Notes: a model not told the origin generated them from the sequence alone. Counted from the first letter of the stretch, positions 8,251 to 45,095 are shown. The stretch is DNA of 64,000 nucleotides from Candidatus Curtissbacteria bacterium (GCA_024654445.1 JANLHP010000022.1:15332-79331); one strand, 5' to 3'. Made by a program: numbers and translations.

Positions 8251-8260
8251 TAGCTTGCTG

Positions 8261-9388: not shown

Positions 9389-9397
9389 AACTTATGT

Positions 9398-16371: not shown

Positions 16372-16380
16372 AAAACGAAG

Positions 16381-17711: not shown

Positions 17712-19394
17712 CTATTTTATCTTTAAAACATCAAAATATGGACCGGGTCTATCCACCAAAAATAGCGGAAAGTTATAAGGCGCGTCAAAGAAAGCTTCAG
17801 GTATTTTGTAATTATAAACAATTTCTCCGGTTGGAGAAAAATGAACAATTAATTCGAAATCAAAACTACTTGAGTTAAATAATAATCGATCATAAGAGCC
17901 AAGATAAGAATCGACTACATATTTGACAGGGTAAACAGACGATGCCCTTTGAAGATCTTCCTCTTTTGATCGTGTTTGAAATTCGTTTATATAAACCACA
18001 TTTCTAACGTTTGGCGGATATGTTTCACCCGTTAACTCCGCCGCCCGCGAGTAGAAACCTGGCCGGAATTCTCTAATTGGGGCTGACGCTCTAGCATTAG
18101 GAACGTGACCAAAATTTCTTCTAATTGTATACGCAATTGGAACTTCACTCCTTATGTTTTTATCAACCCATTCATGGACTTGAGAAAAAGTAGGTGTTTT
18201 TAAAATAAGAATATTCCAGTAAATGGAGTTAAGTGAAGCAAGCAAAAGGAGGATAGAGGCAAATATAACCGATGTAAAATTCAAATGAAGCACACGCGAT
18301 AAAACGAAACCCGAAAAAATAGGTAAAAGGGAAAAACTAATCAAAAAGTATCTAACAAAAGGAGGAAAGACTGTCACCACTAAAAGAAAGTTTAAGAAAA
18401 TAAATAAAAAAAACGGCAAATATTCCCGCCGCCAATTAGTTCTTTTGGTGAAAAATAACATTGCGCTTCCCACGATAATACCGTCGGTTTTAATTAAGTC
18501 TCCAAAAACCTTTTGCACGTTTCCTTCATTTATATAAAACCGCAAAACGTCAAATAAATTGTCCGATGCGTGGGGAAGTTTAATAAGTCCGACATTAGGA
18601 TTTCCCGGGGAAACTATTTTAAAAAAATCTCCACCAACACTCAGAAAATTAAAAACAAGAATTAAAAAAGCCCAAAGTAGCAAAGCTGATAAATTAGTAA
18701 GAATAACTTTTTTCTCAAAAAGATTTCTACTTGAAATTAACCTAAGAAGAATGATCAAAATAATAACCATGCCGCTAATCTGATGAAATCCAAATGAGAT
18801 TGCAGAAAAGATGAAGGCAAAAGTTACATTCTTGAATTCCGAATCATGCTTCTTAATACTTTTATAAGCAAACAACACGGAAAGGAGTGCGAAGAAAATA
18901 GCCGGGGACCAAGCCCTCGCTAAATGAGAAACATGAACTAAATTAAATGAAATCGCAAAAAGCGCGCTTGCCCACAAAGCGGCTTTTTTACTTTCAAAAA
19001 TTTCAACAGTTAGCTTGTAAATAACAAGCACACTTAAAACCCCAAAAAGTGCGGAAATTACGCGAGGAATAAACGTCAGGTAACCTTCTTGCGTTACGAG
19101 TAAAAATTCAAAATCGCGGATGTTGTGTACTTTTCCAGATAAAAACATAACAACAAAGGAAAGAAGAATAAATGGAATTTGCGCGTAAGATCCTAAAGGG
19201 CCGTAGTTGCCAATGCTAAAAATAGATTTTGTGGCAAGCATATTTAACGCGCTCAAATGGTAAATCGCCTCGTCGTTTGACATGTAAAGAATTGGGAATC
19301 CAACCGTAAGGTTATTGAAGCGGAGTAAAAACCCCATCAAAAGTATTAGAAGCAAAAAATATTTAGGAGATATATTTCTTAAGAAACTCATCAA
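17712..19394 (-). CDS. GT-C-fold membrane glycosyltransferase (GT39/GT83, PMT/ArnT-like).
   Basis: An acidic motif in the first loop (YMSNDEAIY), 11-13 TM helices, and a C-terminal periplasmic domain. Confidence 0.6.
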   Translation of the reverse strand: MMSFLRNISPKYFLLLILLMGFLLRFNNLTVGFPILYMSNDEAIYHLSALNMLATKSIFSIGNYGPLGSYAQIPFILLSFVVMFLSGKVHNIRDFEFLLVTQEGYLTFIPRVISALFGVLSVLVIYKLTVEIFESKKAALWASALFAISFNLVHVSHLARAWSPAIFFALLSVLFAYKSIKKHDSEFKNVTFAFIFSAISFGFHQISGMVIILIILLRLISSRNLFEKKVILTNLSALLLWAFLILVFNFLSVGGDFFKIVSPGNPNVGLIKLPHASDNLFDVLRFYINEGNVQKVFGDLIKTDGIIVGSAMLFFTKRTNWRREYLPFFLFIFLNFLLVVTVFPPFVRYFLISFSLLPIFSGFVLSRVLHLNFTSVIFASILLLLASLNSIYWNILILKTPTFSQVHEWVDKNIRSEVPIAYTIRRNFGHVPNARASAPIREFRPGFYSRAAELTGETYPPNVRNVVYINEFQTRSKEEDLQRASSVYPVKYVVDSYLGSYDRLLFNSSSFDFELIVHFSPTGEIVYNYKIPEAFFDAPYNFPLFLVDRPGPYFDVLKIK

Positions 19395-20664
19395 ATTTTA
19401 AAACGACATATTTTAACTGAATCCGATCGATACCGGGATATACACCTATCCAAAAACCAGAATCCATAACGGCATTGCTGTTTGCAAGATCACCTATTAC
19501 TCTGTATTTTATCTTTGAATAAGCAGGATGTTTTAATAAATTGCCGGCAAAAAGACTTCGAGTTTCAATCATATTTGCTTGTAAGAAATTCACAATATCG
19601 AGTCTGGCAAAAGGCGCTTCCTTTCGAACAGTCAGCATAAAACCAAACCAGCAAGGAGCAGACTTTTCCAGCCATTGTGGAAAAACAAAAAACTCCTCGT
19701 ACCTTTTTAACTTTCTATATAGATAATCAAAATTACTTCTTCTTTTTTCTATAAACTTAGGCAGTTTGTCCAATTGAGCTAGACCGATAGCAGCTTGAAT
19801 GTCTGTAGCTTTTAAGTTGTAGCCAATATGAGAATATGTATACTTATGATCGTAGCCATAAGGCAACTTGCCTAACTGAAAGGAAAATCTTCGTCCACAA
19901 CGGTTGTCCTGTCCTGTCCTGCACCAACAGTCACGACCCCATTCACAAAAAGAATTGACAAGAACGTAAAGGTCCGGATTACTAGTGACAACTGCTCCTC
20001 CTTCACCCATTGTAATCTGGTGAGCAGGATAAAAGGAAAAAGTAGCAAGATCTCCAAAGGTCGAAACGTACTTCCCCTTATACTTTGACCCCAACGCATC
20101 GCAACAGTCCTCAATAATCCAAAGATTATTCTTTTTAGCAATAGAGATAACCTTGTCAATATCAAAAGGATTACCAAGCGTATGAGCAATCATAATCGCT
20201 TTAGTTTTTTTCGAAACCGCTTTCTCAATAAGCTCTGGGACAGCATTCCTACTTTGCAAATCGATGTCTACAAAAACTGGAATTGCTCCAAACTGAATGA
20301 TTGGGTTTACTGTTGTTGGAAAAGAGCAAGCAACTGTAATCACCTCGTCGCCCTTCCTGATACGTCTTGCGCCTAGCTTAGGGGAAGTTAGAGCGCTAAA
20401 AGCCGCTAAGTTAGCGCTGGAGCCGCTATTGGTGATAGTTACATATCGAACACCCAAAAATTTCGCAAGCTTTTTAGAAAACTCTTCCGCGAAGTGCCCC
20501 TCAGTCAACCAAAACTCGAGTGATGCCAGAACTGCCTTTTCAATTTCTTTCTCGTCAAAAACCCTGCCCGACACCTTAACTTGGGTTACACCGGGAATGA
20601 AAGCTTTTTTAAAATGAAATTTAGAAAAATAATCAGAAACGAGCGACTCAATTTTCCTTTGCAT
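19363..20664 (-). CDS. rfbH: CDP-6-deoxy-D-xylo-4-hexulose-3-dehydrase (E1, RfbH/DdhC-type PMP/Fe-S enzyme).
   Basis: A DegT fold, but His replaces the PLP Lys (FSFYPAHQITMGEGG), and it carries the C-x1-C-x7-C cluster motif (CWCRTGQDNRC) diagnostic of E1. Confidence 0.8.
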   Translation of the reverse strand: MQRKIESLVSDYFSKFHFKKAFIPGVTQVKVSGRVFDEKEIEKAVLASLEFWLTEGHFAEEFSKKLAKFLGVRYVTITNSGSSANLAAFSALTSPKLGARRIRKGDEVITVACSFPTTVNPIIQFGAIPVFVDIDLQSRNAVPELIEKAVSKKTKAIMIAHTLGNPFDIDKVISIAKKNNLWIIEDCCDALGSKYKGKYVSTFGDLATFSFYPAHQITMGEGGAVVTSNPDLYVLVNSFCEWGRDCWCRTGQDNRCGRRFSFQLGKLPYGYDHKYTYSHIGYNLKATDIQAAIGLAQLDKLPKFIEKRRSNFDYLYRKLKRYEEFFVFPQWLEKSAPCWFGFMLTVRKEAPFARLDIVNFLQANMIETRSLFAGNLLKHPAYSKIKYRVIGDLANSNAVMDSGFWIGVYPGIDRIQLKYVVLKFDEFLKKYIS

Positions 20665-20706: not shown

Positions 20707-21651
20707 ATGAAAAAATCCAAAAAGTTAATAAGTATTGTTATTCCACTCTTTAACGAAGAACAAAACGTAAAAGAACTCCACAGACGATTTAAGCAACTAT
20801 TTACCAGAGAAAAAAAGTATGATTTCGAAATCATAGCTGTCGAGCATGGGTCAACAGATTCTACATTTGAAAAACTAAACAAGTTACGTCAAATCGATAA
20901 AAGAGTAAAGATTCTTCAACTCTCCAAAAATTTTGGTAACGCGGATGCGGGAATTGTCGCTGGTCTTCACTTTGCAAACGGTGACGCCGTTGTCATTACA
21001 ACGGCCGATTTACAGGATCCGCCGGAAGTTATTCCAAAATTTCTGAGAAAATGGGAGCAAGGCTATGAGATTGTTTACGGAGTAATTAAACAAAGGGCAG
21101 ATACTAATTTCTCCAGAAAGTTTTTGTCAATTTTATTTTATAAGATACTCAATCTATCCACAGGAAATATATTTCCTGAAAACGTTTCAGACTTCAGATT
21201 GATTGATAAAAAAGTCACCGAAACCGTTAAAGGAATGCCCGAACGAAACAAGTTTTTAAGAGGAATCATAATTTGGACAGGTTTTTCTCAAACTGGAGTT
21301 AATTACGAAAGGGCAACGAGATTCGCGGGGGAGTCAAAAGCCGACTTCCTAACAGTTTTGAAAGTTGCGGCAAACGGAATTTTTTCATTTTCTTACGCAC
21401 CGTTAAAATTGGTTACATTTCTTGGTTTTTGCCTGTCGCTAGTTTCTTTTTTGTTAATCTTGTACCAAATAAGCCTATTTTTAATTGTTGGTAGGGGGCA
21501 GCCCGGCGTCACAACGATAGTCGTTCTGATGGGATTTTTATTCGGGATGCTATTTTTAATATTGGGCGTGATAGGGGAGTACTTATCCAGGATTTATGAC
21601 GAAGTAAAACAGCGTCCGACTTTTATTGTTAGGAAAAAAATCGGTCTTTAA
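20707..21651 (+). CDS. GT2 polyprenyl-phosphate sugar synthase (DPM1/GtrB/ArnC-like) with C-terminal TM helices. The ATG at 20707 is preferred over the track start at 20581.
   Basis: ISIVIPLFNEE, DAD/TADLQD (DXD) and two C-terminal TM segments. It is transcribed divergently from rfbH. Confidence 0.75.
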   Translation: MKKSKKLISIVIPLFNEEQNVKELHRRFKQLFTREKKYDFEIIAVEHGSTDSTFEKLNKLRQIDKRVKILQLSKNFGNADAGIVAGLHFANGDAVVITTADLQDPPEVIPKFLRKWEQGYEIVYGVIKQRADTNFSRKFLSILFYKILNLSTGNIFPENVSDFRLIDKKVTETVKGMPERNKFLRGIIIWTGFSQTGVNYERATRFAGESKADFLTVLKVAANGIFSFSYAPLKLVTFLGFCLSLVSFLLILYQISLFLIVGRGQPGVTTIVVLMGFLFGMLFLILGVIGEYLSRIYDEVKQRPTFIVRKKIGL

Positions 21652-22535
21652 AAATAATCCTTGATCAAATCTTTGTTTTTAATCTTGTCTTTACGCTTAA
21701 AGTACCATTCATACAGCATGTTTATTGCTTCATTAATGTCTGTAAACTTTATATCCCTAAACTCATTTCTGAGTCGCAAATTGGAAGCCGTATATTCGGG
21801 GGATAAGCCAGTCTTACGTACTCTTATTGGAACTTCGCCTTTTGAGATCGAATTAATTTTTTTGGCAACAGTTATCAAGTCTGTACCCTTCCCAGATGTT
21901 ATGTTGTAAGTTTTATATTTGAGTTTAGTTTTCAAAAATAGCTCTAAAATTCTGACTAGATCATCGATATACAGATAGTCCATAATAATATTCTGATTAA
22001 CATCAATCGGCATATTTAAAATACTTTTGCATATAGAATTAGAAATAAACCTAATTCTGTAGTCTTCATATTTCCCGAAAACCCCAAACAATCTCAAATT
22101 CACAAACTTGTTAGAATCTTCTACATACTTTGCGCAAATATATTTGTACAACCCCCAATTACTCGCGGGAACTAGTTTTCCAAAATCGACTTCACCAGCG
22201 CGCCTGATAGGTTTCTCTTTACCGTATTCAATTCCCGAGCCAAAGTAAAAAAAACGTTTAAAATACTTATCCTGTGATGCAAGGTTAAAAAACATCCTGA
22301 GACTATCCAGCGCAAACTCTCTCGAGTCACCAGTCATTCTATTACCGCCAATTATTGCTGTGTGCAAAACCGCATCAAACGGCCCGTATTTAGAAAAATA
22401 TTTATTTACCAACTCGAAATCTAAAAGATTAAGTTGCTTGTGAGAAGGTGAATAGAAATTATATTTGCCACCAAGACCTCCCAAAACATTTTTCCCAATA
22501 AACCCGCTGCCGCCACTCAAAAAAATTTTCCGCAT
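21648..22535 (-). CDS. NAD(P)-dependent epimerase/dehydratase-family reductase (candidate side-chain or 4-keto reductase, YerF-like by context).
   Basis: GGSGFIGKNV Rossmann motif and YxxxK (YKYICAK). Confidence 0.65.
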   Translation of the reverse strand: MRKIFLSGGSGFIGKNVLGGLGGKYNFYSPSHKQLNLLDFELVNKYFSKYGPFDAVLHTAIIGGNRMTGDSREFALDSLRMFFNLASQDKYFKRFFYFGSGIEYGKEKPIRRAGEVDFGKLVPASNWGLYKYICAKYVEDSNKFVNLRLFGVFGKYEDYRIRFISNSICKSILNMPIDVNQNIIMDYLYIDDLVRILELFLKTKLKYKTYNITSGKGTDLITVAKKINSISKGEVPIRVRKTGLSPEYTASNLRLRNEFRDIKFTDINEAINMLYEWYFKRKDKIKNKDLIKDYF

Positions 22536-22546
22536 AACGCTAGTTT

Positions 22547-24331
22547 TTAAACCTTCTTTGAAGAAGACATATTTTGGAGAAGCTCGTCTTTTTCTAAGAA
22601 AGGAAAAAGATCTTCATAAGGTCTTGACACAAAAGAACCGTCTGGCCTTCTTTCAGAAGCGACCCTCGGTATGATTAATTGCCAATGTGGCGACATAACT
22701 TCGCATAAAACAGGATCATCTCCCTCGAGCGCCATTTTTATCTTTTCATCTACTGCAGTAGTCGACGGAATCTTAACAAAACGCAAGCCATAAGCTTGCG
22801 CAATTTTTTCTAAGTCTGGACACAACAAACCACTCTTCGGACTCTCACCCATAAACCTCCCGCCTAAATGCGTTTTTTGCGTATGCCTAATTAAAAGATA
22901 ACCGCCGTTATTTATGACAAATATTTTGATTGGCAATTTATTTTGCTTGACTGTCGCCAGCTCCTGAATATTCATCTGCAAACTACCGTCACCCGTAATG
23001 ATTATGGTTCTCTTGCCGCTACCTATGCATGCTCCAATTCCGGCGGGCCAATAACCCATTGTCGAAATTCCGCCTGTCGTTAAAAATCTTTGACCAGACT
23101 TGATCATCCATGTTTGGGAAGCAACGTGGAAAATAGAACTTGTGTCAACAACTACGACATCCCCACGAGAAGCTAAGTCCGAAAGCTTCTCTGTAAAATA
23201 ATATGAGTTTACCAGCTTTTGTTTTTTGTAACTTGGTAAAACCATAGGATATTTTTTTCGCCACGCCTGACATGTTTTTCGCCACGCCTCGTGTTTTCCA
23301 GGCTCGTTAAATTTGCCAATTTGCAAAAACTCGCTCAAAAATTTCTTGGCATCAGTGTTTACCGTAATGTCTATATCTGCCCCTGGCTTTTCCAGTTCTT
23401 TTTTATCAACATCAACTGAAACTTTAAAAGCATTTCTTCCCCAGTCACCTGCATCGTATCCCACAATGCCGGTATCCAACCTCGCCCCAATAGAAATTAT
23501 AAAATCAGCATTCTGTACCGCAAAATTTGCCGCTCGATCGGCGTAAAGACCTGGCCTCCCAACAAAAAGTGGATTATCGCTTTCGATAAGGTCGATACCC
23601 AACCTTGTGGTTACTACCGGCACACCAAGCTTTTCATATAAAATTCTCAATTCTTCCTCAGCCCCTGCTATTCTGACCCCCTGCCCAACAAGTAAAAGGG
23701 GCCTTTTGCTTTGGCTGAAAACGGAGTAAATCTTTTTAAGCTCAGAGCTTGTGACTTGAGATATCATATTGGTGCTTTGTTCGTATTGCTTGAGTAGTTT
23801 TACAGGTACTTCCATGCGTTGAATGTCGAGAGGAACTTCAATCCAGACAGGCCCTTTTCTTCCTGACGTTGCTGCCAGGTAAGCTTCCTCCAGATTATAT
23901 CTGACATCTGAAGGATCATCTAACGTTTTAAAGTATTTGGTAACGTTCTTAACAATCGGTTCTATATTTATTCCCTGAAGGCCTAATTGTCTAATTTTAG
24001 TTTTTTGCATATAGGAAACATTGGCAAGCGAAGACTGGCCGGAGATGACCATCATTGGTGCAGAATCGACCCAGGCGCCAACAACGCCGTTTAATGCGTT
24101 TATCGCGCCAGGCCCGGCTGTAACCATAGCAACTCCAAGTTTACCGGTAATACGACCGTACGCTTCGGCTGCCATGCCGGCTGCCTGTTCATGATGGACA
24201 AAAATCCCATCAATCTTTTTATTTTTATACACGGCATCATTTAAGAACATAGCCTGACCGCCCGTTATCATAAAAACGTGTTTAACTAGTAAATCTGACA
24301 AGAATTTTACGATATAATCGGCAACCGTCAT
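22547..24331 (-). CDS. Thiamine-diphosphate-dependent enzyme of the acetolactate-synthase large-subunit family (YerE-like candidate).
   Basis: Three-domain ALS architecture with the TPP-binding GDGS...NNGGY motif region (ITGDGSLQMNIQEL...NNGGY). Confidence 0.75.
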   Translation of the reverse strand: MTVADYIVKFLSDLLVKHVFMITGGQAMFLNDAVYKNKKIDGIFVHHEQAAGMAAEAYGRITGKLGVAMVTAGPGAINALNGVVGAWVDSAPMMVISGQSSLANVSYMQKTKIRQLGLQGINIEPIVKNVTKYFKTLDDPSDVRYNLEEAYLAATSGRKGPVWIEVPLDIQRMEVPVKLLKQYEQSTNMISQVTSSELKKIYSVFSQSKRPLLLVGQGVRIAGAEEELRILYEKLGVPVVTTRLGIDLIESDNPLFVGRPGLYADRAANFAVQNADFIISIGARLDTGIVGYDAGDWGRNAFKVSVDVDKKELEKPGADIDITVNTDAKKFLSEFLQIGKFNEPGKHEAWRKTCQAWRKKYPMVLPSYKKQKLVNSYYFTEKLSDLASRGDVVVVDTSSIFHVASQTWMIKSGQRFLTTGGISTMGYWPAGIGACIGSGKRTIIITGDGSLQMNIQELATVKQNKLPIKIFVINNGGYLLIRHTQKTHLGGRFMGESPKSGLLCPDLEKIAQAYGLRFVKIPSTTAVDEKIKMALEGDDPVLCEVMSPHWQLIIPRVASERRPDGSFVSRPYEDLFPFLEKDELLQNMSSSKKV

Positions 24332-24398: not shown

Positions 24399-25469
24399 TC
24401 AAATTAGTGCCTCGATCAAATCTATTTGTTTTTTCAATACCCTTTTTTGCTTAAGAAGCATTGCGACCTCAATAATGATATCTTCTTGCCCCGCAACTAC
24501 CTTACGTTTTCCAAGCTCAATTAGTATATCCCTTGGGTCAACCCCAAACCTTTCAGCTACCCTTTTTGCGTGTGGCGCAAAGCCCGAAAAAACCCCAGCT
24601 AAGCCGCTTGTTAGGGAAATCGAACTAATTATTTGAGGCTTTTTCATAATTTTTGCAATTATGTCCTCGCTGTTGTCCATTAACTTATAAAGGTCGAGAT
24701 CTATGGGATAACCCATTTTGAAAAGCACTGCAACCAAGACTTCCAATTGACAGTTTCCTGCTCCGGCGCCGAGTCCCCGCGAACATGTATCAAGAATTTT
24801 AGCGCCAGCTAGAAGAGCCGTCACGGTATTCCATACAGCAAGTGAAAGATTATTGTGTGCATGAAATCCGACGTCTATTTTAAGACCGCTAGCTAAAGTT
24901 TTTACCTTCTCGCTAACGTCGCCCGGCAGATAAGCCCCCGCCGAATCCATAAGCAAAACGCCAGATGCACCATACTCCTGCATCAAAAGGGCTTGCGCAA
25001 GGAGTTCTTTGGCGCTGATCATGTGCGACATCATTAAAACTCCATAAACAGTAATTCCACGTCCACAGATGTATTCAATATGTTGCCTCGTAACTGTAGC
25101 TTCCGTGCAGTGGCAGGCAACCATCATTACGTCAACTCCAACAGAAATGGCAGGTTCAACATTTTCCTTGATCGTTCCAAACCCTGGTATCAAAAAAGCG
25201 CCGAGTTTTGTATTTTTGAGTTGCTTGCGTGCGACCCTTAACATTTCATTATCCGAAAGAAGCGAGATACCCAACTGAAGACTCGAGGCGCCCAAACCGT
25301 TTCCGTGGCCAACCATCAAAATTGGTATTTTTGCGTCTTCCGCACCTTTTGAATAATTCGAAATGTCTTCTGCCGTAAACTGGTGAGAAACAGCATGCGA
25401 ACCATCTCTTAGTGTTGAATCTACAATAATCGGGCTAAGTTTCTTTTTGTCAGATCTTGCGTTTGGCAT
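24399..25469 (-). CDS. 4-hydroxy-2-oxovalerate aldolase-like class II pyruvate aldolase (DmpG/BphI family).
   Basis: N-terminal DSTLRDGSHA, HxH metal site (GFHAHNN), and the C-terminal communication domain typical of DmpG. Confidence 0.85.
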   Translation of the reverse strand: MPNARSDKKKLSPIIVDSTLRDGSHAVSHQFTAEDISNYSKGAEDAKIPILMVGHGNGLGASSLQLGISLLSDNEMLRVARKQLKNTKLGAFLIPGFGTIKENVEPAISVGVDVMMVACHCTEATVTRQHIEYICGRGITVYGVLMMSHMISAKELLAQALLMQEYGASGVLLMDSAGAYLPGDVSEKVKTLASGLKIDVGFHAHNNLSLAVWNTVTALLAGAKILDTCSRGLGAGAGNCQLEVLVAVLFKMGYPIDLDLYKLMDNSEDIIAKIMKKPQIISSISLTSGLAGVFSGFAPHAKRVAERFGVDPRDILIELGKRKVVAGQEDIIIEVAMLLKQKRVLKKQIDLIEALI

Positions 25470-26316
25470 ATTCTTCGGCGACTAAAACAGCAGCGCTGTT
25501 TATAATATCCAAATTACCCGCATAAGTTGGTAAAAAATCTCCTCTCCCTAAAACCTCGTTCATAAACGTAAGACGGCCATTTTCAGTTACTGGCTTCATC
25601 GTTAGTTTGTATCCGGGTACGTACTTCCTTATTTCGAAAATAAATTTATTAAGTTCTTTCTCGATTAATTTTATTTTCGGTTTTGCGACTTTTGCAAAAA
25701 TCGTGTTATGCATCACAATCGGCGGCTCGGAAGGGTTAAGGATAATAATCGCTTTCGCGCCTTTAACATGTGTAAATTTTTGGATCGCGTCGCTTGTCGT
25801 TTGCGTATATTCATCAATATTATTTCTAGTGCCAATTCCAGCGGATCTTGACGCAATACTGGCAACAATTTCTACATATTCAATTTCCGGATGTATCTTC
25901 ATTAGGGCGGTAACCAATGGGGTAGTAGCTTGTCCTCCACACGTGACCATATTTACGTTTTTTTCCCTCAGACCTTCTTCTAAATTTAAAATCGGAATAC
26001 ACATTTTGCCTACCCTTGAAGGTGTCATATCGATCGTGAATTTACCGAGCTTTGCAAGAATTGGTGCGTGAACTTTATGTGCCTCCGCGCTTGTTGCATC
26101 AAAAACTATCTCACAAAAGTCAGGATTTTTAACAATCGAGTTAATCGAGTCGTAAGAAGTATTAACTCCCATCGCCTTTGCTCTCTTTATTCCTTCGGAC
26201 ATCATATTGTGTCCGGCAAAAATCCCACAATCCAAAAGTTTGGACCTCCTAATCTTCATTAAAAGATCTGATCCGATGTTTCCTGTACCAATTATTCCGA
26301 CCTTAATCCGCTTACT
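25450..26316 (-). CDS. Acetaldehyde dehydrogenase (acylating), DmpF/MhpF family.
   Basis: VGIIGTGNIGSDL NAD-binding motif and catalytic Cys region (MVTCGGQAT). Its start overlaps the DmpG-like gene, as in dmpFG operons. Confidence 0.85.
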   Translation of the reverse strand, partial: SKRIKVGIIGTGNIGSDLLMKIRRSKLLDCGIFAGHNMMSEGIKRAKAMGVNTSYDSINSIVKNPDFCEIVFDATSAEAHKVHAPILAKLGKFTIDMTPSRVGKMCIPILNLEEGLREKNVNMVTCGGQATTPLVTALMKIHPEIEYVEIVASIASRSAGIGTRNNIDEYTQTTSDAIQKFTHVKGAKAIIILNPSEPPIVMHNTIFAKVAKPKIKLIEKELNKFIFEIRKYVPGYKLTMKPVTENGRLTFMNEVLGRGDFLPTYAGNLDIINSAAVLVAEEYAKRKI

Positions 26317-26365
26317 CATCGACTTTGTAAAACTCGGGAAAACTATTGTACACCTCAAAAGGAAA

Positions 26366-27322
26366 CTAATGAAGATCGAAATACTCTCGATACCATGTTA
26401 ATATGTCTCCCATTGAAGTTTTAAAGTTGTGATTTGGCTTCCAGCCAAAAGCTTTTCTTATTTTATTAAAATTTACAGATTGGGTCGGTATTTCGTTTAC
26501 AGCGGTAGAAAGAATCCTATATTTGATTTTCTCACCAAGAATGTTTTCGACACGCTTTACAACGTCAATAACAGAAAGGTTTTCAAGGGAAGAAACATTA
26601 AAAGCTTCTCCTTGTACCTTTGATATATTGTTCGCAAGAGTCAATGTGGCGTCAACAACGTCTTTTACGTAAACATAGTCACGAATATACTTTCCATTGC
26701 TTCTTATTTTTAACTCTTTATTTTTAACAACAGACTCCATTATTCCCGGAATTAGTCTGTTGAAATTTAAATCACCCTCGCCGTAGACATTCCCAAAACG
26801 CGTGACAACAACCGGCAAGTTGTAAGTTTTAAAATAAGACCTTGCAATTAAATCTGCTGAGGACTTAGACACTTCATAAGGATGATCGCCCGAGATGGGA
26901 TTTTTCTCACTTACCCTCGGCAGCTTGCCGTATGCCTTGTCTGTTGACGTAAACAAGACGCCCTCCACCTTTCCATACAGCCTGCAAGACTCAAGAACAT
27001 TTGTGGTACCAACAACATTCGAAATAACAGTTTGCCGGGGGTTATGAAAGGCGGCATCAACTGTAGTTACGGCAGCAAGATGAAAAACCAAATCGATTTC
27101 ATTTTTGGTGATGACGGAATTTATATGATCAAAATTCCCAATATCACAATATTCAAAAACTACTTTCTCGTCAAGCTTTTGTTGAAGGAAATAAGATTTT
27201 GGGTGTATCAGCAAATCTGTTACAAAAACATTGCACCCCAGATTCACCAACCGTTCTACTAAATGTCCTCCGTAAAAACCGCAGCCTCCGGTGACTAATA
27301 CATTTTTCCCCCTTAGCGCCAT
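26366..27322 (-). CDS. rfbG: CDP-glucose 4,6-dehydratase (RfbG/DdhB-like SDR).
   Basis: VLVTGGCGFYGGHL Rossmann motif and YEVSKSSAD catalytic motif. It is adjacent to rfbF. Confidence 0.7.
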   Translation of the reverse strand: MALRGKNVLVTGGCGFYGGHLVERLVNLGCNVFVTDLLIHPKSYFLQQKLDEKVVFEYCDIGNFDHINSVITKNEIDLVFHLAAVTTVDAAFHNPRQTVISNVVGTTNVLESCRLYGKVEGVLFTSTDKAYGKLPRVSEKNPISGDHPYEVSKSSADLIARSYFKTYNLPVVVTRFGNVYGEGDLNFNRLIPGIMESVVKNKELKIRSNGKYIRDYVYVKDVVDATLTLANNISKVQGEAFNVSSLENLSVIDVVKRVENILGEKIKYRILSTAVNEIPTQSVNFNKIRKAFGWKPNHNFKTSMGDILTWYREYFDLH

Positions 27323-28083
27323 ATTTTCCAGGCAGGATTTTCCCTCCACATCTCGTTTAAATCGTTCATGTCCTGGTAAGTATCCATCGCGTGGAAAAAT
27401 CCGCGATGCTCATACAAAGCTAATTGTCTCTTACTAACAAGTGGCTCAAAAACTTCTTCAATCATCGAATCTGGTTTTATGTAGTTGAACACACCCTTTT
27501 TAAAAACCATAAACCCTCCGTTGATCAATTGTCTTATCTTGGCCTTTTTCTCAAAATCGCTAACTAGGCCGTCTCCGTTGGCATCCAGACCTCCATATTT
27601 GAGTTGCGGATAAACACCAGTCACGGTCCCAAGTGTTTTTTTACGCATATGAAATTTAACTAAATCGCGGATGTTGATGTCGGAAAGCCCGTCACCATAA
27701 GTCACCATAAAATAATTCCCATCTATATAATTCTTAACTCTTCTTAACCTCTCACCTGTCTTCGATTCAAGGCCAGTGTCGACAAAGGTAATATTCATTT
27801 TCTCCAGCAAACCGTTCTTGTGCTTTACCTTATGCGTTGAAGTATTTATCGTGAAGTCGTTATCGTAGTATTTCTTATTTATAAAATAATCTTTTACTAA
27901 GTTACCTTTGTATCCCAGGGCAATGATAAAATCATTAAACCCCCAGTGTGAGTACATTTTCAAAATGTGCCAGAGAATTGGCCTTCCGCCGACTTCGACC
28001 ATAGGCTTTGGTTTAAATTCTGTTTCCTCTTTTAACCTGTAACCTATGCCTCCGCAAAGAATAACCGTTTTAATTTTTGCCAT
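27313..28083 (-). CDS. rfbF: Glucose-1-phosphate cytidylyltransferase.
   Basis: ILCGGIGYRLKEETEFKPKPMVEVGGRPILWHI is the classic RfbF N-terminal signature. Confidence 0.9.
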   Translation of the reverse strand: MAKIKTVILCGGIGYRLKEETEFKPKPMVEVGGRPILWHILKMYSHWGFNDFIIALGYKGNLVKDYFINKKYYDNDFTINTSTHKVKHKNGLLEKMNITFVDTGLESKTGERLRRVKNYIDGNYFMVTYGDGLSDINIRDLVKFHMRKKTLGTVTGVYPQLKYGGLDANGDGLVSDFEKKAKIRQLINGGFMVFKKGVFNYIKPDSMIEEVFEPLVSKRQLALYEHRGFFHAMDTYQDMNDLNEMWRENPAWKIWR

Positions 28084-30007
28084 TCTTGTCTAAAACTTTT
28101 TTAACTAATTTCGCTATCGAGCCAGAATCTAATTGGTGGTGTTTCAAAACATCCAAATTTTGGCCGCACACGGGAACTTCTTTCAAGCCAAGTGAAATTA
28201 ACTTTTCAGGCCGCACCTTAAGTTTTAAAATCGCAGAAGCAATCATGTCCCCCTGACCCATTTTCAAATAGTGATTATCTATTGTAAAAATTACCGGGAA
28301 TTTTGCAACAACCTTTTTCAGCCAGTTGCTATCAATCTCATTTAGCCAGGGTAAATTATACACGCCAACAGACAAATTTTGAGCAACAACGCTACGGGCA
28401 GCTTTATATGCTTCACTAAGCATCACAGGACCATAAGAAATAATAGCGACATCGTGGCCCTTCAAAATCTCAACTCCACGACCTTTTTGGAGATGATAAT
28501 TTGCACGTAGACTGTAAGGAATTTGACAAGGGACGCTGACGAGCCTTATATAGGTGCTTCCGCTATTTTTTTCGACCGCCCACCTTATGGCGATTCGAGC
28601 CTCTTGCTCACACGAAGGTTCAATGATTGTAAGATTAGGTATGCTTCCGAGAGTTGAAATATCTCTCACACTTTGATGGGAGTGACCGGGACCACCGGGA
28701 ACAAGACCAGCAAGCGACCCAACATAAATAATTTTTGTATTTTCCGTCGCATTGTTGTAAATTTGCTCATTCGGTCTTGTAGATAAAAAACAAGCAAAAG
28801 AGTGAACAACGGGCAACTTCCCTGACAACGCAAGTCCTCCGGCCATAGAAGCCATATGTTGTTCCGCGATTCCGCACTCAATATACCTTTGCGGGAATTT
28901 ATTTTTAAACGGTATAAGTCCGGTGTCTAAAACCAGATCCGCGTCCATGGCTATGATGTTTTTATTTCTTCTTGAAATTTTTACAAGTTCATCCCCATAC
29001 GCTGTAACTAACCTTTGTGGTTTTTCAAAAACAGTTCTTACGGGCAGATCTGTTGTGTCAAATTTAATTGCCTTCAGCCCAAATTTCTCCAGTTTCAAAT
29101 TTATTCTTTTTGCGATTTCCTTTTGCGCACTCAAATAAATTTCAATAGCAGGCGCCCCGCTGTGAAATTTGTAATATCCGTCTTCTCCCACCTTTTCCAT
29201 AAACGAAACACCCTTGCCTTTTACCGTATCGGCAATTAGGATTTGTGGTTTATTCTTGACCTTTGCAAATTTATCAAACACTCTCTTAAGCTGGCCAAAA
29301 TCATGACCGCTGCATCTTTCAACTTCCCAACCAAACGCTTTTAATTTACCTTCTAGGTCTCCAAGATCACTAACGTCTCTAACCCAGGTATCGGATTGGA
29401 TTTTATTGTGGTCGACAATTACCGTGATCTCATTAAATTTTCCGTTTACGGCAGGTTGAAGCGATTCCCAAAAAGCGCCTTCTTGCAATTCTCCATCGCC
29501 ACACATAACGTAAACCTTCCCGGATTTACCGTCCATTCTCCTTGCCTTCACCATTCCCATCGCTTTCGAAACACCCATCCCCAAAGAACCAGTATTTGCA
29601 GCAATATAAGGCGTATTCACATCTGGATGACCTGGAAGGCCATCAACCTCCCTTAATTTATGGATAAAATTAAAAGAAATTCGTTCACTGCCAATCAATA
29701 TACTGTATAGAGCAGGAACGTCGTGACCTTTCGAGGAAAAATAAATATCAAAATTGTTCCTCTGCCATTCGTTTGGAAACTTAAGTTGATGAAGCCACAA
29801 CCAAGTTGCTATATCTATTGAGCTAAAACTGGTTCCGACGTGCCCAGATCCAGCTCTCTCTATCATATAAAGAGTATTTATTCTAAAAATATCAGAAAGT
29901 ATCTGGCAAAAATGTTTGGGATTTTTTACTCGCGATTTTATTCGCTTAATTTCACCTATTGGAGTATATGATAATTTTCTATTATATTTCGAATCCTTTT
30001 TTGGCAT
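28070..30007 (-). CDS. Transketolase-like TPP enzyme (N- and C-terminal halves fused).
   Basis: N-terminal TPP-binding domain (GSGHVGTSFS, GDGELQEG) plus a Pyr domain and the transketolase C-terminal domain. Confidence 0.8.
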   Translation of the reverse strand: MPKKDSKYNRKLSYTPIGEIKRIKSRVKNPKHFCQILSDIFRINTLYMIERAGSGHVGTSFSSIDIATWLWLHQLKFPNEWQRNNFDIYFSSKGHDVPALYSILIGSERISFNFIHKLREVDGLPGHPDVNTPYIAANTGSLGMGVSKAMGMVKARRMDGKSGKVYVMCGDGELQEGAFWESLQPAVNGKFNEITVIVDHNKIQSDTWVRDVSDLGDLEGKLKAFGWEVERCSGHDFGQLKRVFDKFAKVKNKPQILIADTVKGKGVSFMEKVGEDGYYKFHSGAPAIEIYLSAQKEIAKRINLKLEKFGLKAIKFDTTDLPVRTVFEKPQRLVTAYGDELVKISRRNKNIIAMDADLVLDTGLIPFKNKFPQRYIECGIAEQHMASMAGGLALSGKLPVVHSFACFLSTRPNEQIYNNATENTKIIYVGSLAGLVPGGPGHSHQSVRDISTLGSIPNLTIIEPSCEQEARIAIRWAVEKNSGSTYIRLVSVPCQIPYSLRANYHLQKGRGVEILKGHDVAIISYGPVMLSEAYKAARSVVAQNLSVGVYNLPWLNEIDSNWLKKVVAKFPVIFTIDNHYLKMGQGDMIASAILKLKVRPEKLISLGLKEVPVCGQNLDVLKHHQLDSGSIAKLVKKVLDKNGKN

Positions 30008-30745
30008 TTACAAGTTATTTTTTAAAACTAGCTCTGCGAGCTGAAAATCAATTTCATTATCTATATCAACAGAACTGTTCTCATCAAGCATCACAAACCT
30101 TATGCGTTTACCAGTTAACAATTTATCTTTCATTAAAGTTTCGTATCTTACGGCAATAACGTCTACATGGGCAAACGCCTGCGGCAAGAGTTGTCTGGCA
30201 ATATTAGAAGGCTCATTAAAACCTGTTAATTCTTTCGGCACAAAAGGTTTTAATTCCACGCCGTCAACACGCCAGAGCTTGTAAGGATGTTTAGGGGCAG
30301 TTTTAATAGTTCTTGCGGAAGTTGCTTTTTTGTCATTTAACAAAAGCTCGATACATGCGTCAATAGAGTCTGTCCTACAAAGTGGAGCAGTAGGGGGGAG
30401 ACGCAAAATAATATTAGGGATCCAACCCTCATTTTTTTCAAGCCATCGAACCGCATGAGTAAGATAGGTAATATCATCCGCCCGATCGCCGGCGTACTTC
30501 TTCGGTCTTAAAAATGGGACCTCGGCCCCATAATTTTTCCCAATTTTTGCGTACTTATGACTATCAGTAGAAAGTACCAAGCGTGTAATATACTTTGATC
30601 TTTTAGCGGCCTCAATAATCCAAGCCATAAGCGGTTTTCCCAAAAGTGGTTTAATGTTTTTATTCGGAATACTTCTCGACCCGCTTCTGGCGCCGACAAC
30701 TCCAAGCACTTTTAAATTTTTGCCTTTAGATATTTTCTGGGTCAT
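30008..30745 (-). CDS. CMP-ulosonic acid synthetase (acylneuraminate cytidylyltransferase/KdsB family).
   Basis: GVVGARSGSRSIPNKNIKPLLGKPLMAW P-loop-like motif of NeuA/KdsB. Confidence 0.8.
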   Translation of the reverse strand: MTQKISKGKNLKVLGVVGARSGSRSIPNKNIKPLLGKPLMAWIIEAAKRSKYITRLVLSTDSHKYAKIGKNYGAEVPFLRPKKYAGDRADDITYLTHAVRWLEKNEGWIPNIILRLPPTAPLCRTDSIDACIELLLNDKKATSARTIKTAPKHPYKLWRVDGVELKPFVPKELTGFNEPSNIARQLLPQAFAHVDVIAVRYETLMKDKLLTGKRIRFVMLDENSSVDIDNEIDFQLAELVLKNNL

Positions 30746-32189
30746 GTTTTATATAAACAGTTTTCCATTCCGAATAAACATCCAGTGCCTCCGTTCCAGG
30801 TTCCCGGAACCCATTGCCGGAATTTTTAAATCCGCCAAAAGGCATGTGAGGCTCGCTACCATGAGTTGGCCCATTTATCGAAATAACACCCGCTTGTATT
30901 TCGCTTCTGAAAACTTCAGCACGATCAATGCTTTTAGTGTGAATTGCAGCAGTCAAACCATAAACTGAATTGTTTGCAAGCTTTAGGGCCTCTGCAAAAT
31001 CTTTCACCCTAAAAAGAATGGTGATGGGCCCAAAAAGCTCGTCTTGCGAAATACTAGCTCTCTCATTCGCGTTTTCAATAATCGTTGGCACCATATAATA
31101 CCCATTTTTATGACTGGAATCGACAAGTCGTAATCCTCCGCATAAAACTCTTACGCCTTCACTTCTAGCCTTCTCTACGGCAAGCAGCATTTGTTCTAGC
31201 TGTCCGCTATTTATAACAGGGCCTAAATCATCACTATCAGAGTTCCCTAATTTCAAATTCTTAGTTTTTACAACCAACATCTTCTTAAACTTTTCATAAA
31301 CATTGTCAAAAACAATAATCCTGCTTCCGGAGGCACACCTTTGGCCTGCATTCGAAAAAGCGGAAAGAACAGCAGCATCGCAGGCTGCGTCAAGGTCAGC
31401 GTCATCGCAAACTACAAAAGGATTTTTTCCTCCAAGCTCAAGACAAACCTTTGCAAGTCTTTCTCCAGCAGTACTTTGAATATACTTTCCGACAGGAACA
31501 GAACCTGTAAAACTTACAAGGTCGACTCGGCTATCCTCAACTAAAGCTACACCGGCTTCCTCACCAAATCCCAGTATTACATTGAAAATACCTAATGGTA
31601 ACCCCGCCTCTTTTAGCACCCTTGCAAACCAAATAGCGGTATATGGGGTATCTTCCGATGGTTTCATAACAGCGGCATTTCCACACAGAAGAGCGGGGTA
31701 AGCCTTCCATGCGACATTAGCAATGGGGGTGTTGGCGGCAACTATGAGGGCGCAAACCCCAATAGGGGAACGTACTGTCATCGCGAAACGATTTAAGACC
31801 GCGCTTGTTGTAGTCCTCCCGTAAAATCTTCGCCCCTCACCGCTTATAAAAAAACCAAGCTCAACTGCAGCCAATACTTCCCCCAAAGCATCTTTCAAAG
31901 ATTTGCCTGTTTCAACAGACACGATCTGCGCAATCTCTTTTCTCCTCTGACCCATAATTACAGTCGCGTTTCTTAAAATTAATGATCTTTCGACAACTGA
32001 AATTTTTCTCCAACCATCAAGTGCCTTTGATGCTACAGTAATAGCCTTATCAACATCCTGACCATTTCCTCTTGCAACATCCGCAATAACTCTTCCAGAA
32101 TCTGGGTTTATCTTTGAAAAAAAACGTTCTGAAGCAGAAGTAATTTCCTTATTACCTACAAAGTGAAAGATTTTCTTGGGATAAACCAT
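30726..32189 (-). CDS. NAD(P)+-dependent aldehyde dehydrogenase.
   Basis: ALDH signatures (LELGGKNP, FSNAGQRCASGSR with catalytic Cys, and the EELFGPI glutamate site). Confidence 0.85.
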   Translation of the reverse strand: MVYPKKIFHFVGNKEITSASERFFSKINPDSGRVIADVARGNGQDVDKAITVASKALDGWRKISVVERSLILRNATVIMGQRRKEIAQIVSVETGKSLKDALGEVLAAVELGFFISGEGRRFYGRTTTSAVLNRFAMTVRSPIGVCALIVAANTPIANVAWKAYPALLCGNAAVMKPSEDTPYTAIWFARVLKEAGLPLGIFNVILGFGEEAGVALVEDSRVDLVSFTGSVPVGKYIQSTAGERLAKVCLELGGKNPFVVCDDADLDAACDAAVLSAFSNAGQRCASGSRIIVFDNVYEKFKKMLVVKTKNLKLGNSDSDDLGPVINSGQLEQMLLAVEKARSEGVRVLCGGLRLVDSSHKNGYYMVPTIIENANERASISQDELFGPITILFRVKDFAEALKLANNSVYGLTAAIHTKSIDRAEVFRSEIQAGVISINGPTHGSEPHMPFGGFKNSGNGFREPGTEALDVYSEWKTVYIKHDPENI

Positions 32190-32202
32190 ACTTTAAAAAA
32201 GA

Positions 32203-33018
32203 CTATAAAGCGGTAAAGCCACCATCAACTTTAATATTTTCTCCTGTGATGTAACGAGATGCGTCAGAGGCCATAAAAACTAATGGGCCTGCGATATCTT
32301 CACTTCGAGCCATGCGACGCAAGGGAACCCGAGCGTTAAATTTTTTAACAAAACGTCTGTCTTGATTATTGAAAACCCCACCTGGAGAAATCACATTTAC
32401 CCTGACGTTATATTTGCCCCACATCACAGCAACATATTTTGTCAAATTCAAAAGAGCCGCCTTAGAGGGGCCATACATAGGTGGTTTCAAAAATGGAGGA
32501 TCCACATCTATATGATCATAAAAATGTGGATCAGGGGAAACCGAAGCGTACAGCGAACCAACATTAATTATTGATCCTTTTTTTGCCCTCGCCATTTCGC
32601 TTCCAAAAACTTGAATCATTAAAAAAGCGCCGAGGACATTAACTGTCAATATTTTTTCACCTATCTCGTATGGTATATCTTCAAATTTGTATCCCTCCTG
32701 AACTTTCGTCGGAGGTTGGTCAATTCCTGCGTTATTAACAAGAATTAAAGGAAGACCGAACTTTGTCTTGCAATCTAAAAATGCTTTTTCAACTTGTTTT
32801 CTGTTTAAAACGTCTGCCCTTAAAAGACCTAACTTATTGCCATATTCTTCCTGTAGGAGCGAAAAAGTTTTTGGAATCACCGCATATTTCTGATCCACAC
32901 CAACAACTGTTGCCCCAGCTTCCAGAAGGGCCCTCGACCAAACAGGCCCCAAAAGCCCAAGGGCCCCAGTAACAACGGCCACTTTCCCTTCCAGATTAAA
33001 AAGATTAAGAACTGCCAT
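32203..33018 (-). CDS. Short-chain dehydrogenase/reductase (SDR).
   Basis: VVTGALGLLG, NNAG, and YGPSKAA (YxxxK). Confidence 0.8.
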   Translation of the reverse strand: MAVLNLFNLEGKVAVVTGALGLLGPVWSRALLEAGATVVGVDQKYAVIPKTFSLLQEEYGNKLGLLRADVLNRKQVEKAFLDCKTKFGLPLILVNNAGIDQPPTKVQEGYKFEDIPYEIGEKILTVNVLGAFLMIQVFGSEMARAKKGSIINVGSLYASVSPDPHFYDHIDVDPPFLKPPMYGPSKAALLNLTKYVAVMWGKYNVRVNVISPGGVFNNQDRRFVKKFNARVPLRRMARSEDIAGPLVFMASDASRYITGENIKVDGGFTAL

Positions 33019-33511
33019 TTTTAGAAGTGACTATCAAATCGCATATTTCCCTAACCGCACCCAAACCCCCGGCTTTTTGCGTGATGTAAAGAGAAACAGC
33101 CTTTACTTCTTCGTATGCGTCTGAGACGCTAATTGGAAGTCCAACTGCAGTCATACACTCCAGATCATTAATATCATTTCCGACATAAGCAGTATTTTTG
33201 TGTTCTATGTTTAACCTTTTCAATAATTGTTCGAGAGCTAATCTTTTTTCATCTACACCGGTCAAGCATGGTATCTTTAGCTTTCTGCACCTCAACCTAA
33301 CTACAGGATTTTTCTCTTTTGAAATAACCCAGGACAATATCCCTGCCTTGCGTAGCTTAGAAAGGCCGATTCCGTCGCATCTATTACACCTAACCGCCTC
33401 GCTGCCGTCTTCAAATACCCAAACAGTGTTGTCTGTAAAAACGCCATCAAAATCGAAAACTACAAGTTTGACTTCCCGGGCCCTTACACCAACAAGCTGT
33501 CGTTTAGACAT
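33005..33511 (-). CDS. HAD-IIIA KdsC-type phosphatase (ulosonate-phosphate phosphatase).
   Basis: LVVFDFDGVFTDN motif I and GND motif IV. The size (168 aa) is typical of KdsC/Kdn-9-P phosphatases. Confidence 0.85.
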   Translation of the reverse strand: MSKRQLVGVRAREVKLVVFDFDGVFTDNTVWVFEDGSEAVRCNRCDGIGLSKLRKAGILSWVISKEKNPVVRLRCRKLKIPCLTGVDEKRLALEQLLKRLNIEHKNTAYVGNDINDLECMTAVGLPISVSDAYEEVKAVSLYITQKAGGLGAVREICDLIVTSKNGSS

Positions 33512-45094: not shown

Positions 45095-45095
45095 A

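Follow-up and report, generated by a model that had tools for sequence, protein, structure and literature searches.

In this study, the adjacent genes at positions 24,399 to 26,316 of a 64,000-nucleotide stretch of Candidatus Curtissbacteria DNA (JANLHP010000022.1:15332-79331; hereafter the window) were analyzed. They encode a class II pyruvate aldolase of the DmpG type and a CoA-acylating acetaldehyde dehydrogenase of the DmpF type, and the pair is probably part of an erwiniose-type pathway for an acyl-branched deoxy sugar in this member of the Candidate Phyla Radiation (CPR, or Patescibacteria). An earlier reading, made from the DNA alone (the sequence-only reading), had proposed a biosynthetic and not a catabolic role for the pair, namely in building a sugar side chain. 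This proposal agrees with our results: the two genes and a following thiamine diphosphate (ThDP)-dependent enzyme gene form a contiguous triad in 6/6 independent related cassettes, codon usage is ordinary, and the aldolase groups with aldolases of sugar clusters. The same reading had called this a new use of the enzyme pair, which does not hold, since ErwI/ErwJ beside ErwE/ErwF had already been described by Steitz et al. in 2022 (PMC9306805). What is new here is the CPR host and phylum, the gene order, the lack of an E3 gene, a dehydratase of a different lineage, an aldolase with a Phe/Phe signature, and the attached family 2 glycosyltransferase (GT2) and GT-C fold protein. The neighboring ThDP enzyme is the key link; the sequence-only reading had mentioned neither it nor the short-chain dehydrogenase/reductase (SDR) that follows.

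Both genes of the pair are real and lie on the minus strand where they had first been placed. The aldolase gene (24399..25469; 356 aa) encodes an enzyme of the DmpG/BphI/ErwI type, which scores 390 bits against TIGR03217 (4-hydroxy-2-oxovalerate aldolase; cut-off 286) and consists of an HMGL-like barrel (Pfam PF00682, 120.7 bits) and a C-terminal DmpG_comm domain (PF07836, 95.8 bits). The dehydrogenase gene (25450-26316) encodes an enzyme of the DmpF/BphJ/ErwJ type, with 374 bits against TIGR03215 (cut-off 282), 162.7 bits for AcetDehyd-dimer (PF09290), and PDB matches to 7Z3S (290 bits) and 1NVM_B (246 bits). Its mechanical open reading frame (ORF) spans 25450..26358 and opens with a TTG at 26358, whereas homology places the start at an ATG at 26316 (MSKRIKVGIIGTGNIG versus MNQKLKVAIIGSGNIG in DmpF). 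For the aldolase, the ATG at 25469 is the sole canonical start upstream of the conserved IVDSTLRDG block. Transcription runs from the dehydrogenase to the aldolase, as in dmpFG, bphJI and mhpFE, and the 20-nt overlap between the genes (25450-25469) is present in the sequence, so that equivalog scores and sequence agree with what had been reported of location, order and overlap. In the related cassettes, the two genes lie anywhere between 10 nt apart and overlapping by 26 nt. Because the overlap is not conserved, it carries little weight alone. Nor is it evidence for substrate channelling.

Profile searches (Pfam, and NCBIfam at equivalog cut-offs) covered each ORF of 120 aa or more in the 64-kb window. 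No meta-cleavage dioxygenase, hydratase, decarboxylase or tautomerase was found among these ORFs, as the sequence-only reading had held for dioxygenases and hydratases. The whole window is one glycan island, containing pseudaminic-acid genes, a heptose pathway, SDRs acting on nucleoside diphosphate sugars, aminotransferases, glycosyltransferases, an ABC-2 exporter and GT-C proteins. The pair had also been described as flanked by sugar-nucleotide genes on both sides. This stands for the upstream side, where a dehydratase-type SDR and a cytidylyltransferase are located, but directly downstream lies the 594-aa ThDP enzyme, which is not a nucleotide-sugar gene. The tight spacing alone (overlaps, or gaps of at most 67 nt, from 34571 down to 21648) suggests co-transcription. 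A scan of 17-36.5 kb gave 60 promoter-like matches versus a shuffled expectation of 42.5 (standard deviation 6.8) and 16 terminator-like matches versus 17.3; neither signal type marked the intergenic gaps of the cassette, and the scan says nothing on transcript boundaries.

The ThDP gene (22547..24331, minus strand) starts 67 nt downstream of the aldolase gene and encodes a YerE-like carboligase of the ErwE/JanthE type with three TPP_enzyme domains. The enzyme scores far under all acetolactate synthase cut-offs. Its best PDB match is 8RPH with 375 bits, versus about 230-240 bits for 5AHK and acetohydroxyacid synthase. In the literature, 8RPH is JanthE and 5AHK is PpYerE, both of them “YerE-like” carboligases that add an acyl anion to keto sugars. 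The window enzyme shares 41% identity with the ErwE-like enzyme of Pectobacterium versatile (locus L013) and 28-32% with canonical YerE enzymes. In a simple neighbor-joining tree of a small sample, which is indicative only, it falls with the enzymes of other CPR cassettes inside a non-canonical YerE-like group that is entirely DmpG-linked and also holds ErwE-like and JanthE-like enzymes. Canonical YerE enzymes (PpYerE and the Yersinia genes) form a separate clade without DmpG, and the window enzyme lies outside it. The active-site loop around V479 of PpYerE also differs systematically between the canonical enzymes and the DmpG-linked group. The next gene (21648..22535, minus strand), in the position of ErwF/YerF, encodes a divergent extended-SDR reductase (Pfam Epimerase, PF01370, 67.6 bits). 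The P. versatile gene that follows the ErwE-like gene belongs to the same SDR family with a similar score (65.6 bits), and a tblastn comparison of the two SDRs at E<=1e-5 yielded no match. An SDR homolog of about 284-298 aa is present in all six related cassettes; three (L001, L003 and L005) have it immediately behind the ThDP gene.

Those six cassettes keep the dehydrogenase, aldolase and ThDP genes in the same order, and all of them are located in sugar-nucleotide neighborhoods. They originate from metagenomes and from records of Curtiss-, Davies- and Shapirobacteria, and the surrounding sugar genes vary. Most also carry a cytidylyltransferase, a dehydratase, an SDR, an opposite-strand GT2 of the ArnC/PgfS type and an RfbH-like gene, and an ABC-2 exporter and PMT_2 (GT-C) proteins are encoded in part of the set. 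In L005, an ordinary DegT aminotransferase-like gene is found instead of the RfbH-like 3-dehydrase (E1). The named relatives of the aldolase are 67-75% identical and come from Curtiss-, Davies- and Shapirobacteria, other Patescibacteria and one record labelled Acidoferrales. As a separate observation, a Daviesbacteria-type contig (L088, 6871-14111) has the order DmpF-DmpG-ThDP-HpcH aldolase-ThDP-SDR, wherein two different aldolases are each followed by a YerE-like enzyme. This order suggests modular “aldolase + carboligase” units in tandem, possibly for two different branched sugars or for one that is doubly modified.

The erwiniose cluster of Pectobacterium atrosepticum SCRI1043 encodes ErwE (ThDP enzyme), ErwF (reductase), the BphJ-like ErwJ, the BphI-like ErwI, and the enzymes for CDP-3,6-dideoxy-4-keto-glucose (PMC9306805). 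It was proposed that ErwJ converts acetyl-CoA to acetaldehyde, that ErwI joins this with pyruvate to 4-hydroxy-2-oxopentanoate, and that ErwE couples the latter as donor to CDP-3,6-dideoxy-4-keto-glucose. In vitro, ErwE takes 4-hydroxy-2-oxopentanoate, prefers the (4R) form and rejects pyruvate (PMC9306805). The sequence-only reading had suggested sugar aldehydes as acceptors for the aldolase. These are unneeded, as the published logic is the addition of acetaldehyde to pyruvate followed by ThDP-dependent attachment to a keto sugar. As a proxy for the P. atrosepticum Erw proteins (WP_011093010-13), the locus of P. versatile CFBP6051 (L013) with the same gene order was used. It reads E3, ddhA, ddhB, ddhC, HpcH aldolase, ThDP enzyme, SDR, dehydrogenase and aldolase, and the last four genes match the accession order ErwE, ErwF, ErwJ, ErwI reported by Steitz et al. 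(PMC9306805). The window shares with the erwiniose cluster the predicted functions of dehydrogenase, aldolase, ThDP enzyme, cytidylyltransferase, 4,6-dehydratase and E1, and its SDR may take the part of the reductase. The counterparts in L013 are 51% (aldolase), 51-52% (dehydrogenase) and 41% (ThDP enzyme) identical. Across proteobacterial loci, the aldolase is 49-55% identical to ErwI-type and the dehydrogenase 49-52% identical to ErwJ-type enzymes, whereas the aldolase is only 38-41% identical to four solved catabolic enzymes (1NVM, 8IH7, 4JN6 and 4LRS). In the neighbor-joining tree of aldolases, the CPR-type and proteobacterial ErwI-type enzymes stand together, apart from these four. The proteobacterial loci came from a genome scan seeded with Yersinia E1, which gave 80 ddhC loci among the matches listed; 12 of these 80 carry DmpF, DmpG and a non-canonical YerE-like gene, and P. 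atrosepticum is not among the matches listed. Also among the matches listed, 0/9 loci of the canonical YerE subclade (PpYerE and the Yersinia genes) have DmpG within 10 kb.

The two systems also differ. The gene order is DmpF-DmpG-ThDP-SDR in the window and ThDP-SDR-DmpF-DmpG in Pectobacterium, the window has no E3 gene, and its dehydratase is of another lineage. The window cassette carries an ArnC/PgfS-like GT2 and a GT-C transferase, and the P. versatile locus has an ordinary GT2. The host is a CPR bacterium (Candidatus Curtissbacteria) and not a Gram-negative bacterium with lipopolysaccharide, unlike Pectobacterium; in line with this, a protein annotated in a metagenome-assembled Candidatus Curtissbacteria genome matches the window aldolase at 100% identity. 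Besides DmpF/DmpG, L013 (7052-16968) additionally has an aldolase of the HpcH/HpaI family between ddhC and the ErwE-like gene; L048 and L052 are two further loci with the HpcH match.

The active-site residues of the pair are conserved. Arg17, Asp18, His21, His200 and His202 of DmpG correspond to Arg21, Asp22, His25, His203 and His205 of the window aldolase. The dehydrogenase retains GxGxxG, Cys132, Asn171, Ile172, Ile196 and Asn290 (DmpF numbering), with the catalytic Cys within NMVTCGGQAT. At about 40% identity to 1NVM, the predicted fold of the pair is not in doubt. Acetaldehyde channelling is plausible, given that the communication domain and the catalytic Cys are kept and that the presumed tunnel exit still has hydrophobic residues: the positions that we take to form this exit in 1NVM (Ile172, Ile196 and Met198) read Ile, Ile and Leu in the window dehydrogenase. 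The position of BphI Gly322, which presumably lines the tunnel, is Ala in 95/120 CPR-type and 12/12 ErwI-type aldolases, including that of L013 and the window enzyme, and Gly in 4/4 catabolic enzymes.

Two other positions separate the biosynthetic from the catabolic aldolases. In BphI, Leu87 and Tyr290 enforce 4S stereospecificity; Leu87 adjoins the C4 methyl of the substrate and Leu89 limits aldehyde length (PMC3962088). In the window aldolase, Leu87 is replaced by Phe92 and Tyr290 by Phe294. At the Tyr290 position, Phe is found in 120/120 CPR-type and 12/12 ErwI-type proteobacterial aldolases, including that of L013, and Tyr in 4/4 solved catabolic enzymes. The Leu87 position is Phe in 118/120 CPR-type enzymes, His in 12/12 ErwI-type (Pectobacterium-type) enzymes and Leu in 4/4 catabolic enzymes. 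The Leu89 position is Ile, of similar size, in every biosynthetic member. The Y290F variant of BphI lost 4S stereocontrol, and the double variants L87N/Y290F and L87W/Y290F became 4R-specific (review PMC3962088). The natural His/Phe and Phe/Phe pairs appear to resemble these engineered variants, which would fit the preference of ErwE for the (4R) donor. With neither of the two 4S-enforcing residues of BphI retained, a 4R product is probable, and the Phe/Phe signature of the window aldolase is consistent with it. In an hmmalign alignment of 150 aldolase representatives (clustered at 50% identity), the closest mostly have Phe at BphI 290, in the classes H/F, F/F, Y/F, M/F and L/F (BphI 87/290), and the L/Y class is found further out. 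A large subfamily of long proteins that share the DmpG-like domain was also observed in this survey (about 70 cluster representatives of 600-840 aa, P0148-P0270); here Tyr replaces His21, and Phe/His stand at BphI 87/290.

The remaining genes of the cassette supply candidates for the other steps. The cytidylyltransferase (27313..28083, minus strand) is a glucose-1-phosphate cytidylyltransferase of the DdhA/RfbF type, 40-48% identical to DdhA of proteobacterial ddh loci; a homolog is present in 5/6 related cassettes, and none was found in L090 within its 8-kb flanks. The extended-SDR sugar 4,6-dehydratase (26366..27349, minus strand; Pfam Epimerase and GDP_Man_Dehyd) is encoded by a gene that always adjoins the cytidylyltransferase gene in the related cassettes. 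It keeps the S/T-D-K (here TDK) and YxxxK motifs, which it has in common with Pectobacterium DdhB, and is probably a functional analog of DdhB and not its ortholog. The CDP-6-deoxy-D-xylo-4-hexulose 3-dehydrase (E1, RfbH/DdhC; 19363..20664, minus strand) scores 677 bits against NF011936 (RfbH; cut-off 423) and 538 bits against Yersinia E1 (PDB 3BCX). Here, His replaces the lysine that binds pyridoxal phosphate (SFYPAHQITMGEGG) and the C-x-C-x7-C motif is present, both of them diagnostic of E1, a pyridoxamine phosphate- and Fe-S-dependent 3-dehydrase. On the opposite strand lies a GT2 of the polyprenyl-phosphate type (PgfS/ArnC-like; 20707..21651, plus strand, mechanical ORF start 20581; Pfam Glycos_transf_2), which scores 238 bits against PgfS and 154 bits against ArnC in NCBIfam, both under the cut-offs. 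Related cassettes have it at the corresponding place, with 67-73% identity in L001-L004. The GT-C fold membrane glycosyltransferase (PMT_2/ArnT-like; 17712..19394, minus strand) matches Pfam PMT_2 and PMT weakly (31 bits), with a 47% identical homolog in L003 and PMT_2 genes in L001 and L088. It is possibly the final transferase, using a lipid-linked sugar, and its tie to the branched sugar is conjectural.

From the observed gene identities, synteny and residue patterns, we infer the catalytic direction, substrates, stereochemistry and final acceptor as follows. The cytidylyltransferase would make a CDP-hexose, which the 4,6-dehydratase would convert to CDP-4-keto-6-deoxyglucose; E1 and a further reductase would then remove the 3-hydroxyl to give a CDP-3,6-dideoxy-4-keto-hexose. 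The DmpF-type enzyme would work in the reductive direction, forming acetaldehyde from acetyl-CoA and NADH. Acetaldehyde is probably handed directly to the DmpG-type aldolase, which would add it to pyruvate to yield 4-hydroxy-2-oxopentanoate, probably 4R. The YerE-like enzyme may then decarboxylate this keto acid and add the four-carbon acyl anion to C4 of the keto sugar, after which the adjacent SDR may reduce the side-chain ketone, leaving a CDP-sugar with a dihydroxybutyl-type branch like that of erwiniose. More speculatively, the ArnC/PgfS-like GT2 could load the sugar on polyprenyl phosphate, and the GT-C enzyme could transfer it to a cell-surface acceptor.

Several points weigh against this pathway. 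To our knowledge, no glycan structure is known for any CPR bacterium. No homolog of the E3 reductase (DdhD/AscD) was found in the window or the related cassettes; the window was searched by tblastn at E<=1e-5 with P. versatile E3 (Fer2 + FAD_binding_6 + NAD_binding_1) as query. For lack of an E3 homolog, 3-deoxygenation would have to proceed without its usual partner. Some E1 homologs such as SpnQ work with general cellular reductases, so the missing E3, though a real difference, is not fatal. The cytidylyltransferase scores 277 bits against TIGR02623, slightly under the cut-off of 300. The 4,6-dehydratase is under all curated cut-offs, including the dTDP- and CDP-glucose dehydratase models, and its identity to the DdhB of Proteobacteria is just 23-32%. 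With ErwE-like and JanthE-like enzymes, the ThDP enzyme shares no more than 34-41% identity, and its donor specificity cannot be read from clade or sequence, because JanthE itself is promiscuous and accepts pyruvate. In addition, the trees are of the simple kind noted above, and the comparison with the Erw proteins was made through the P. versatile proxy.

Some of these points would also suit a different product made by the same logic. Another acyl-CoA might be used (e.g., propionyl-CoA, giving a five-carbon branch), or an acceptor that is not 3-deoxygenated, and the product would then be a relative of erwiniose. The lack of an E3 homolog and the non-canonical dehydratase fit this, as does L005 with its DegT aminotransferase-like gene in place of E1. 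The aldolase has Phe instead of the ErwI-type His next to the C4 methyl of the substrate, and ErwE also takes 4-hydroxy-2-oxobutanoate and 4-hydroxy-2-oxohexanoate (PMC9306805). However, E1 is highly conserved with all its diagnostic motifs, which argues that 3-deoxygenation occurs, and the residue that limits aldehyde length, Leu89 of BphI, is exchanged only for the similar-sized Ile. Such a product is unlikely, though it deserves to be kept in mind.

It is rather improbable that the ThDP enzyme is an ordinary pyruvate-using YerE that makes a two-carbon, yersiniose-type branch, while the pair acts elsewhere, for example in a later extension of the acetyl branch or in balancing acetaldehyde and pyruvate pools. 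The YerE-like enzymes JanthE and MygE do accept pyruvate, and Steitz et al. expressly considered another order of the aldolase and ThDP reactions (PMC9306805). ErwE, however, rejected pyruvate (PMC9306805), and the window enzyme lies outside the canonical clade and differs at the V479 loop. The strict adjacency of DmpF, DmpG and the ThDP enzyme fits a donor-supplier role, and the pairing of a second aldolase (HpcH) with a second ThDP enzyme in L088 suggests aldolase and carboligase modules. The yersiniose A system of Yersinia pseudotuberculosis (YerE/YerF) shares with the window the ThDP-dependent acyl-anion transfer onto CDP-3,6-dideoxy-4-keto-glucose, the subsequent reduction and the ddh-type precursor genes; unlike the window, it uses pyruvate as donor for a two-carbon branch and has no aldolase/dehydrogenase pair.

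The recent insertion of a meta-cleavage operon fragment with no functional tie to the glycan genes, which the sequence-only reading had named as the case against its own proposal, is highly improbable: the aldolase gene does have the highest G+C in the window (0.438; mean 0.391, standard deviation 0.024), but the insertion is rejected because composition is otherwise ordinary, synteny is conserved at 67-75% identity in many relatives, and the aldolase lacks the catabolic Leu/Tyr pair and groups apart from the catabolic enzymes, in a 64-kb window with no other meta-cleavage gene. G+C at third codon positions (GC3) is 0.401 for the aldolase and 0.374 for the dehydrogenase, within the window spread, and codon-usage deviation is 0.128 and 0.121, respectively, versus a mean of 0.134. 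The dehydrogenase gene is ordinary in G+C, GC3 and codon usage alike.

The erwiniose-type pathway can also be set beside other known systems. The meta-cleavage complexes DmpG-DmpF, BphI-BphJ and MhpE-MhpF (1NVM) have the same families, gene order, catalytic residues, communication domain and catalytic Cys as the window pair. They differ in their hydratase/dioxygenase context, in the Leu87/Tyr290 residues of BphI, which are replaced by Phe/Phe in the window, and in direction, which we propose to be reversed in the window toward hydroxy-keto acid synthesis from acetyl-CoA and pyruvate. The mycobacterial caryophyllose and gastriose clusters (MMAR_2331/2332 and MygI/MygE) likewise attach an aldolase-made functionalized 2-oxo acid by a YerE-like enzyme; in contrast, these clusters use an aldolase of the HpcH/citrate-lyase family, build longer side chains and lack an acylating dehydrogenase. 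JanthE of Janthinobacterium (8RPH), the closest solved structure to the window ThDP enzyme, has a CDG motif and is promiscuous towards donors, whereas the window enzyme has a GDG motif at residue 447. As a side observation, JanthE stands in the tree with enzymes from loci in which the ThDP gene is always followed by DmpF/DmpG (L072, L059, L063 and related loci; Duganella/Janthinobacterium group), and its physiological donor may also be 4-hydroxy-2-oxopentanoate. In the literature, JanthE is described mainly as a promiscuous biocatalyst. A literature search for CPR plus 4-hydroxy-2-oxovalerate returned nothing relevant.

Plasmids were searched as well. With the ThDP enzyme as tblastn query, nothing but ordinary acetolactate synthases of about 30% identity turned up, and the search with the aldolase led to catabolic or natural-product contexts. 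One aldolase match, on plasmid pP97_e of Phaeobacter porticola (L007, 4979-13293), was considered as a sugar cluster and rejected for its ATP-grasp/aminotransferase context. There, a dmpG-dehydrogenase pair in reversed order has no sugar genes around it; its neighbors are two flanking ATP-grasp genes, an FAD/NAD(P)-binding protein and a class I/II aminotransferase. This aldolase has His/Cys at BphI 87/290, and similar matches occur on plasmids of Leisingera and other Phaeobacter. The locus is another non-catabolic context, in which an amino acid may be made from the hydroxy-keto acid.

If the erwiniose-type pathway is correct, the scheme of aldolase plus ThDP enzyme for acyl-branched sugars reaches from Proteobacteria and mycobacteria to the Candidate Phyla Radiation, and genes annotated as “dmpG/dmpF” in these CPR genomes would mark surface glycan chemistry and would not be evidence for aromatic degradation or fermentation. 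CPR surface glycans are uncharacterized and probably matter for attachment to host cells. The replacement of Leu87 by Phe or His together with Tyr290 by Phe may serve as a simple sequence marker for biosynthetic, probably 4R-forming aldolases of the DmpG family; as a natural counterpart to the engineered BphI variants, it may also interest biocatalysis. A broader picture can be offered only tentatively: the cassette might be one module of a rich CPR branched-sugar factory, its product delivered by the polyprenyl-phosphate GT2 and the GT-C enzyme to a surface protein or cell-wall polymer and not by an O-antigen route, and the Phe/Phe aldolase might be a natural variant in stereochemistry or substrate, distinct from ErwI (His/Phe). 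Were it such a variant, the pathway would yield a branched sugar so far not observed in glycans.

The rest of the island is rich in related functions. A second YerE-like ThDP enzyme (45962-47683, minus strand) is 36% identical to the ErwE-like enzyme of P. versatile. Beside it, on the minus strand, are an alpha/beta pair resembling the E1 component of pyruvate dehydrogenase (PDH-E1; 47683-49684) and a split transketolase (44159-45965), and an aldo-keto reductase, an FkbM methyltransferase, a 3,5-epimerase and SDRs are found near 44159-49684. With the fused transketolase at 28070-30007, one island has all three ThDP superfamilies known to branch keto sugars, for a total of five C-C bond-forming ThDP enzymes (two YerE-like, the fused and the split transketolase, and the PDH-E1 alpha/beta pair). 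Directly upstream of the cassette in the same array (28070-34571, minus strand), the genes encode a NeuB-like synthase (305 bits, under the cut-off of 400), a KdsC-family phosphatase, an SDR, an aldehyde dehydrogenase, a PseF-like cytidylyltransferase and the fused transketolase; no specific model reaches its cut-off here, and the set suggests a sub-operon for a CMP-activated ulosonic acid. At 6706-17376, a pseudaminic-acid-type pathway includes PseB (468 bits) and PseC (476 bits), both over their cut-offs, together with a GNAT-PseI fusion (550 aa; PseI 434 bits), a HisF/HisH-like pair and a second cytidylyltransferase. Finally, GT-C/membrane proteins (two PMT_2 and one DUF2142) and the ArnC/PgfS-like GT2 are located at 17712-19394, 58124-60849 and 20707-21651. 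This set points to the transfer of lipid-linked monosaccharides outside the membrane, which would be notable in a cell without an outer membrane.

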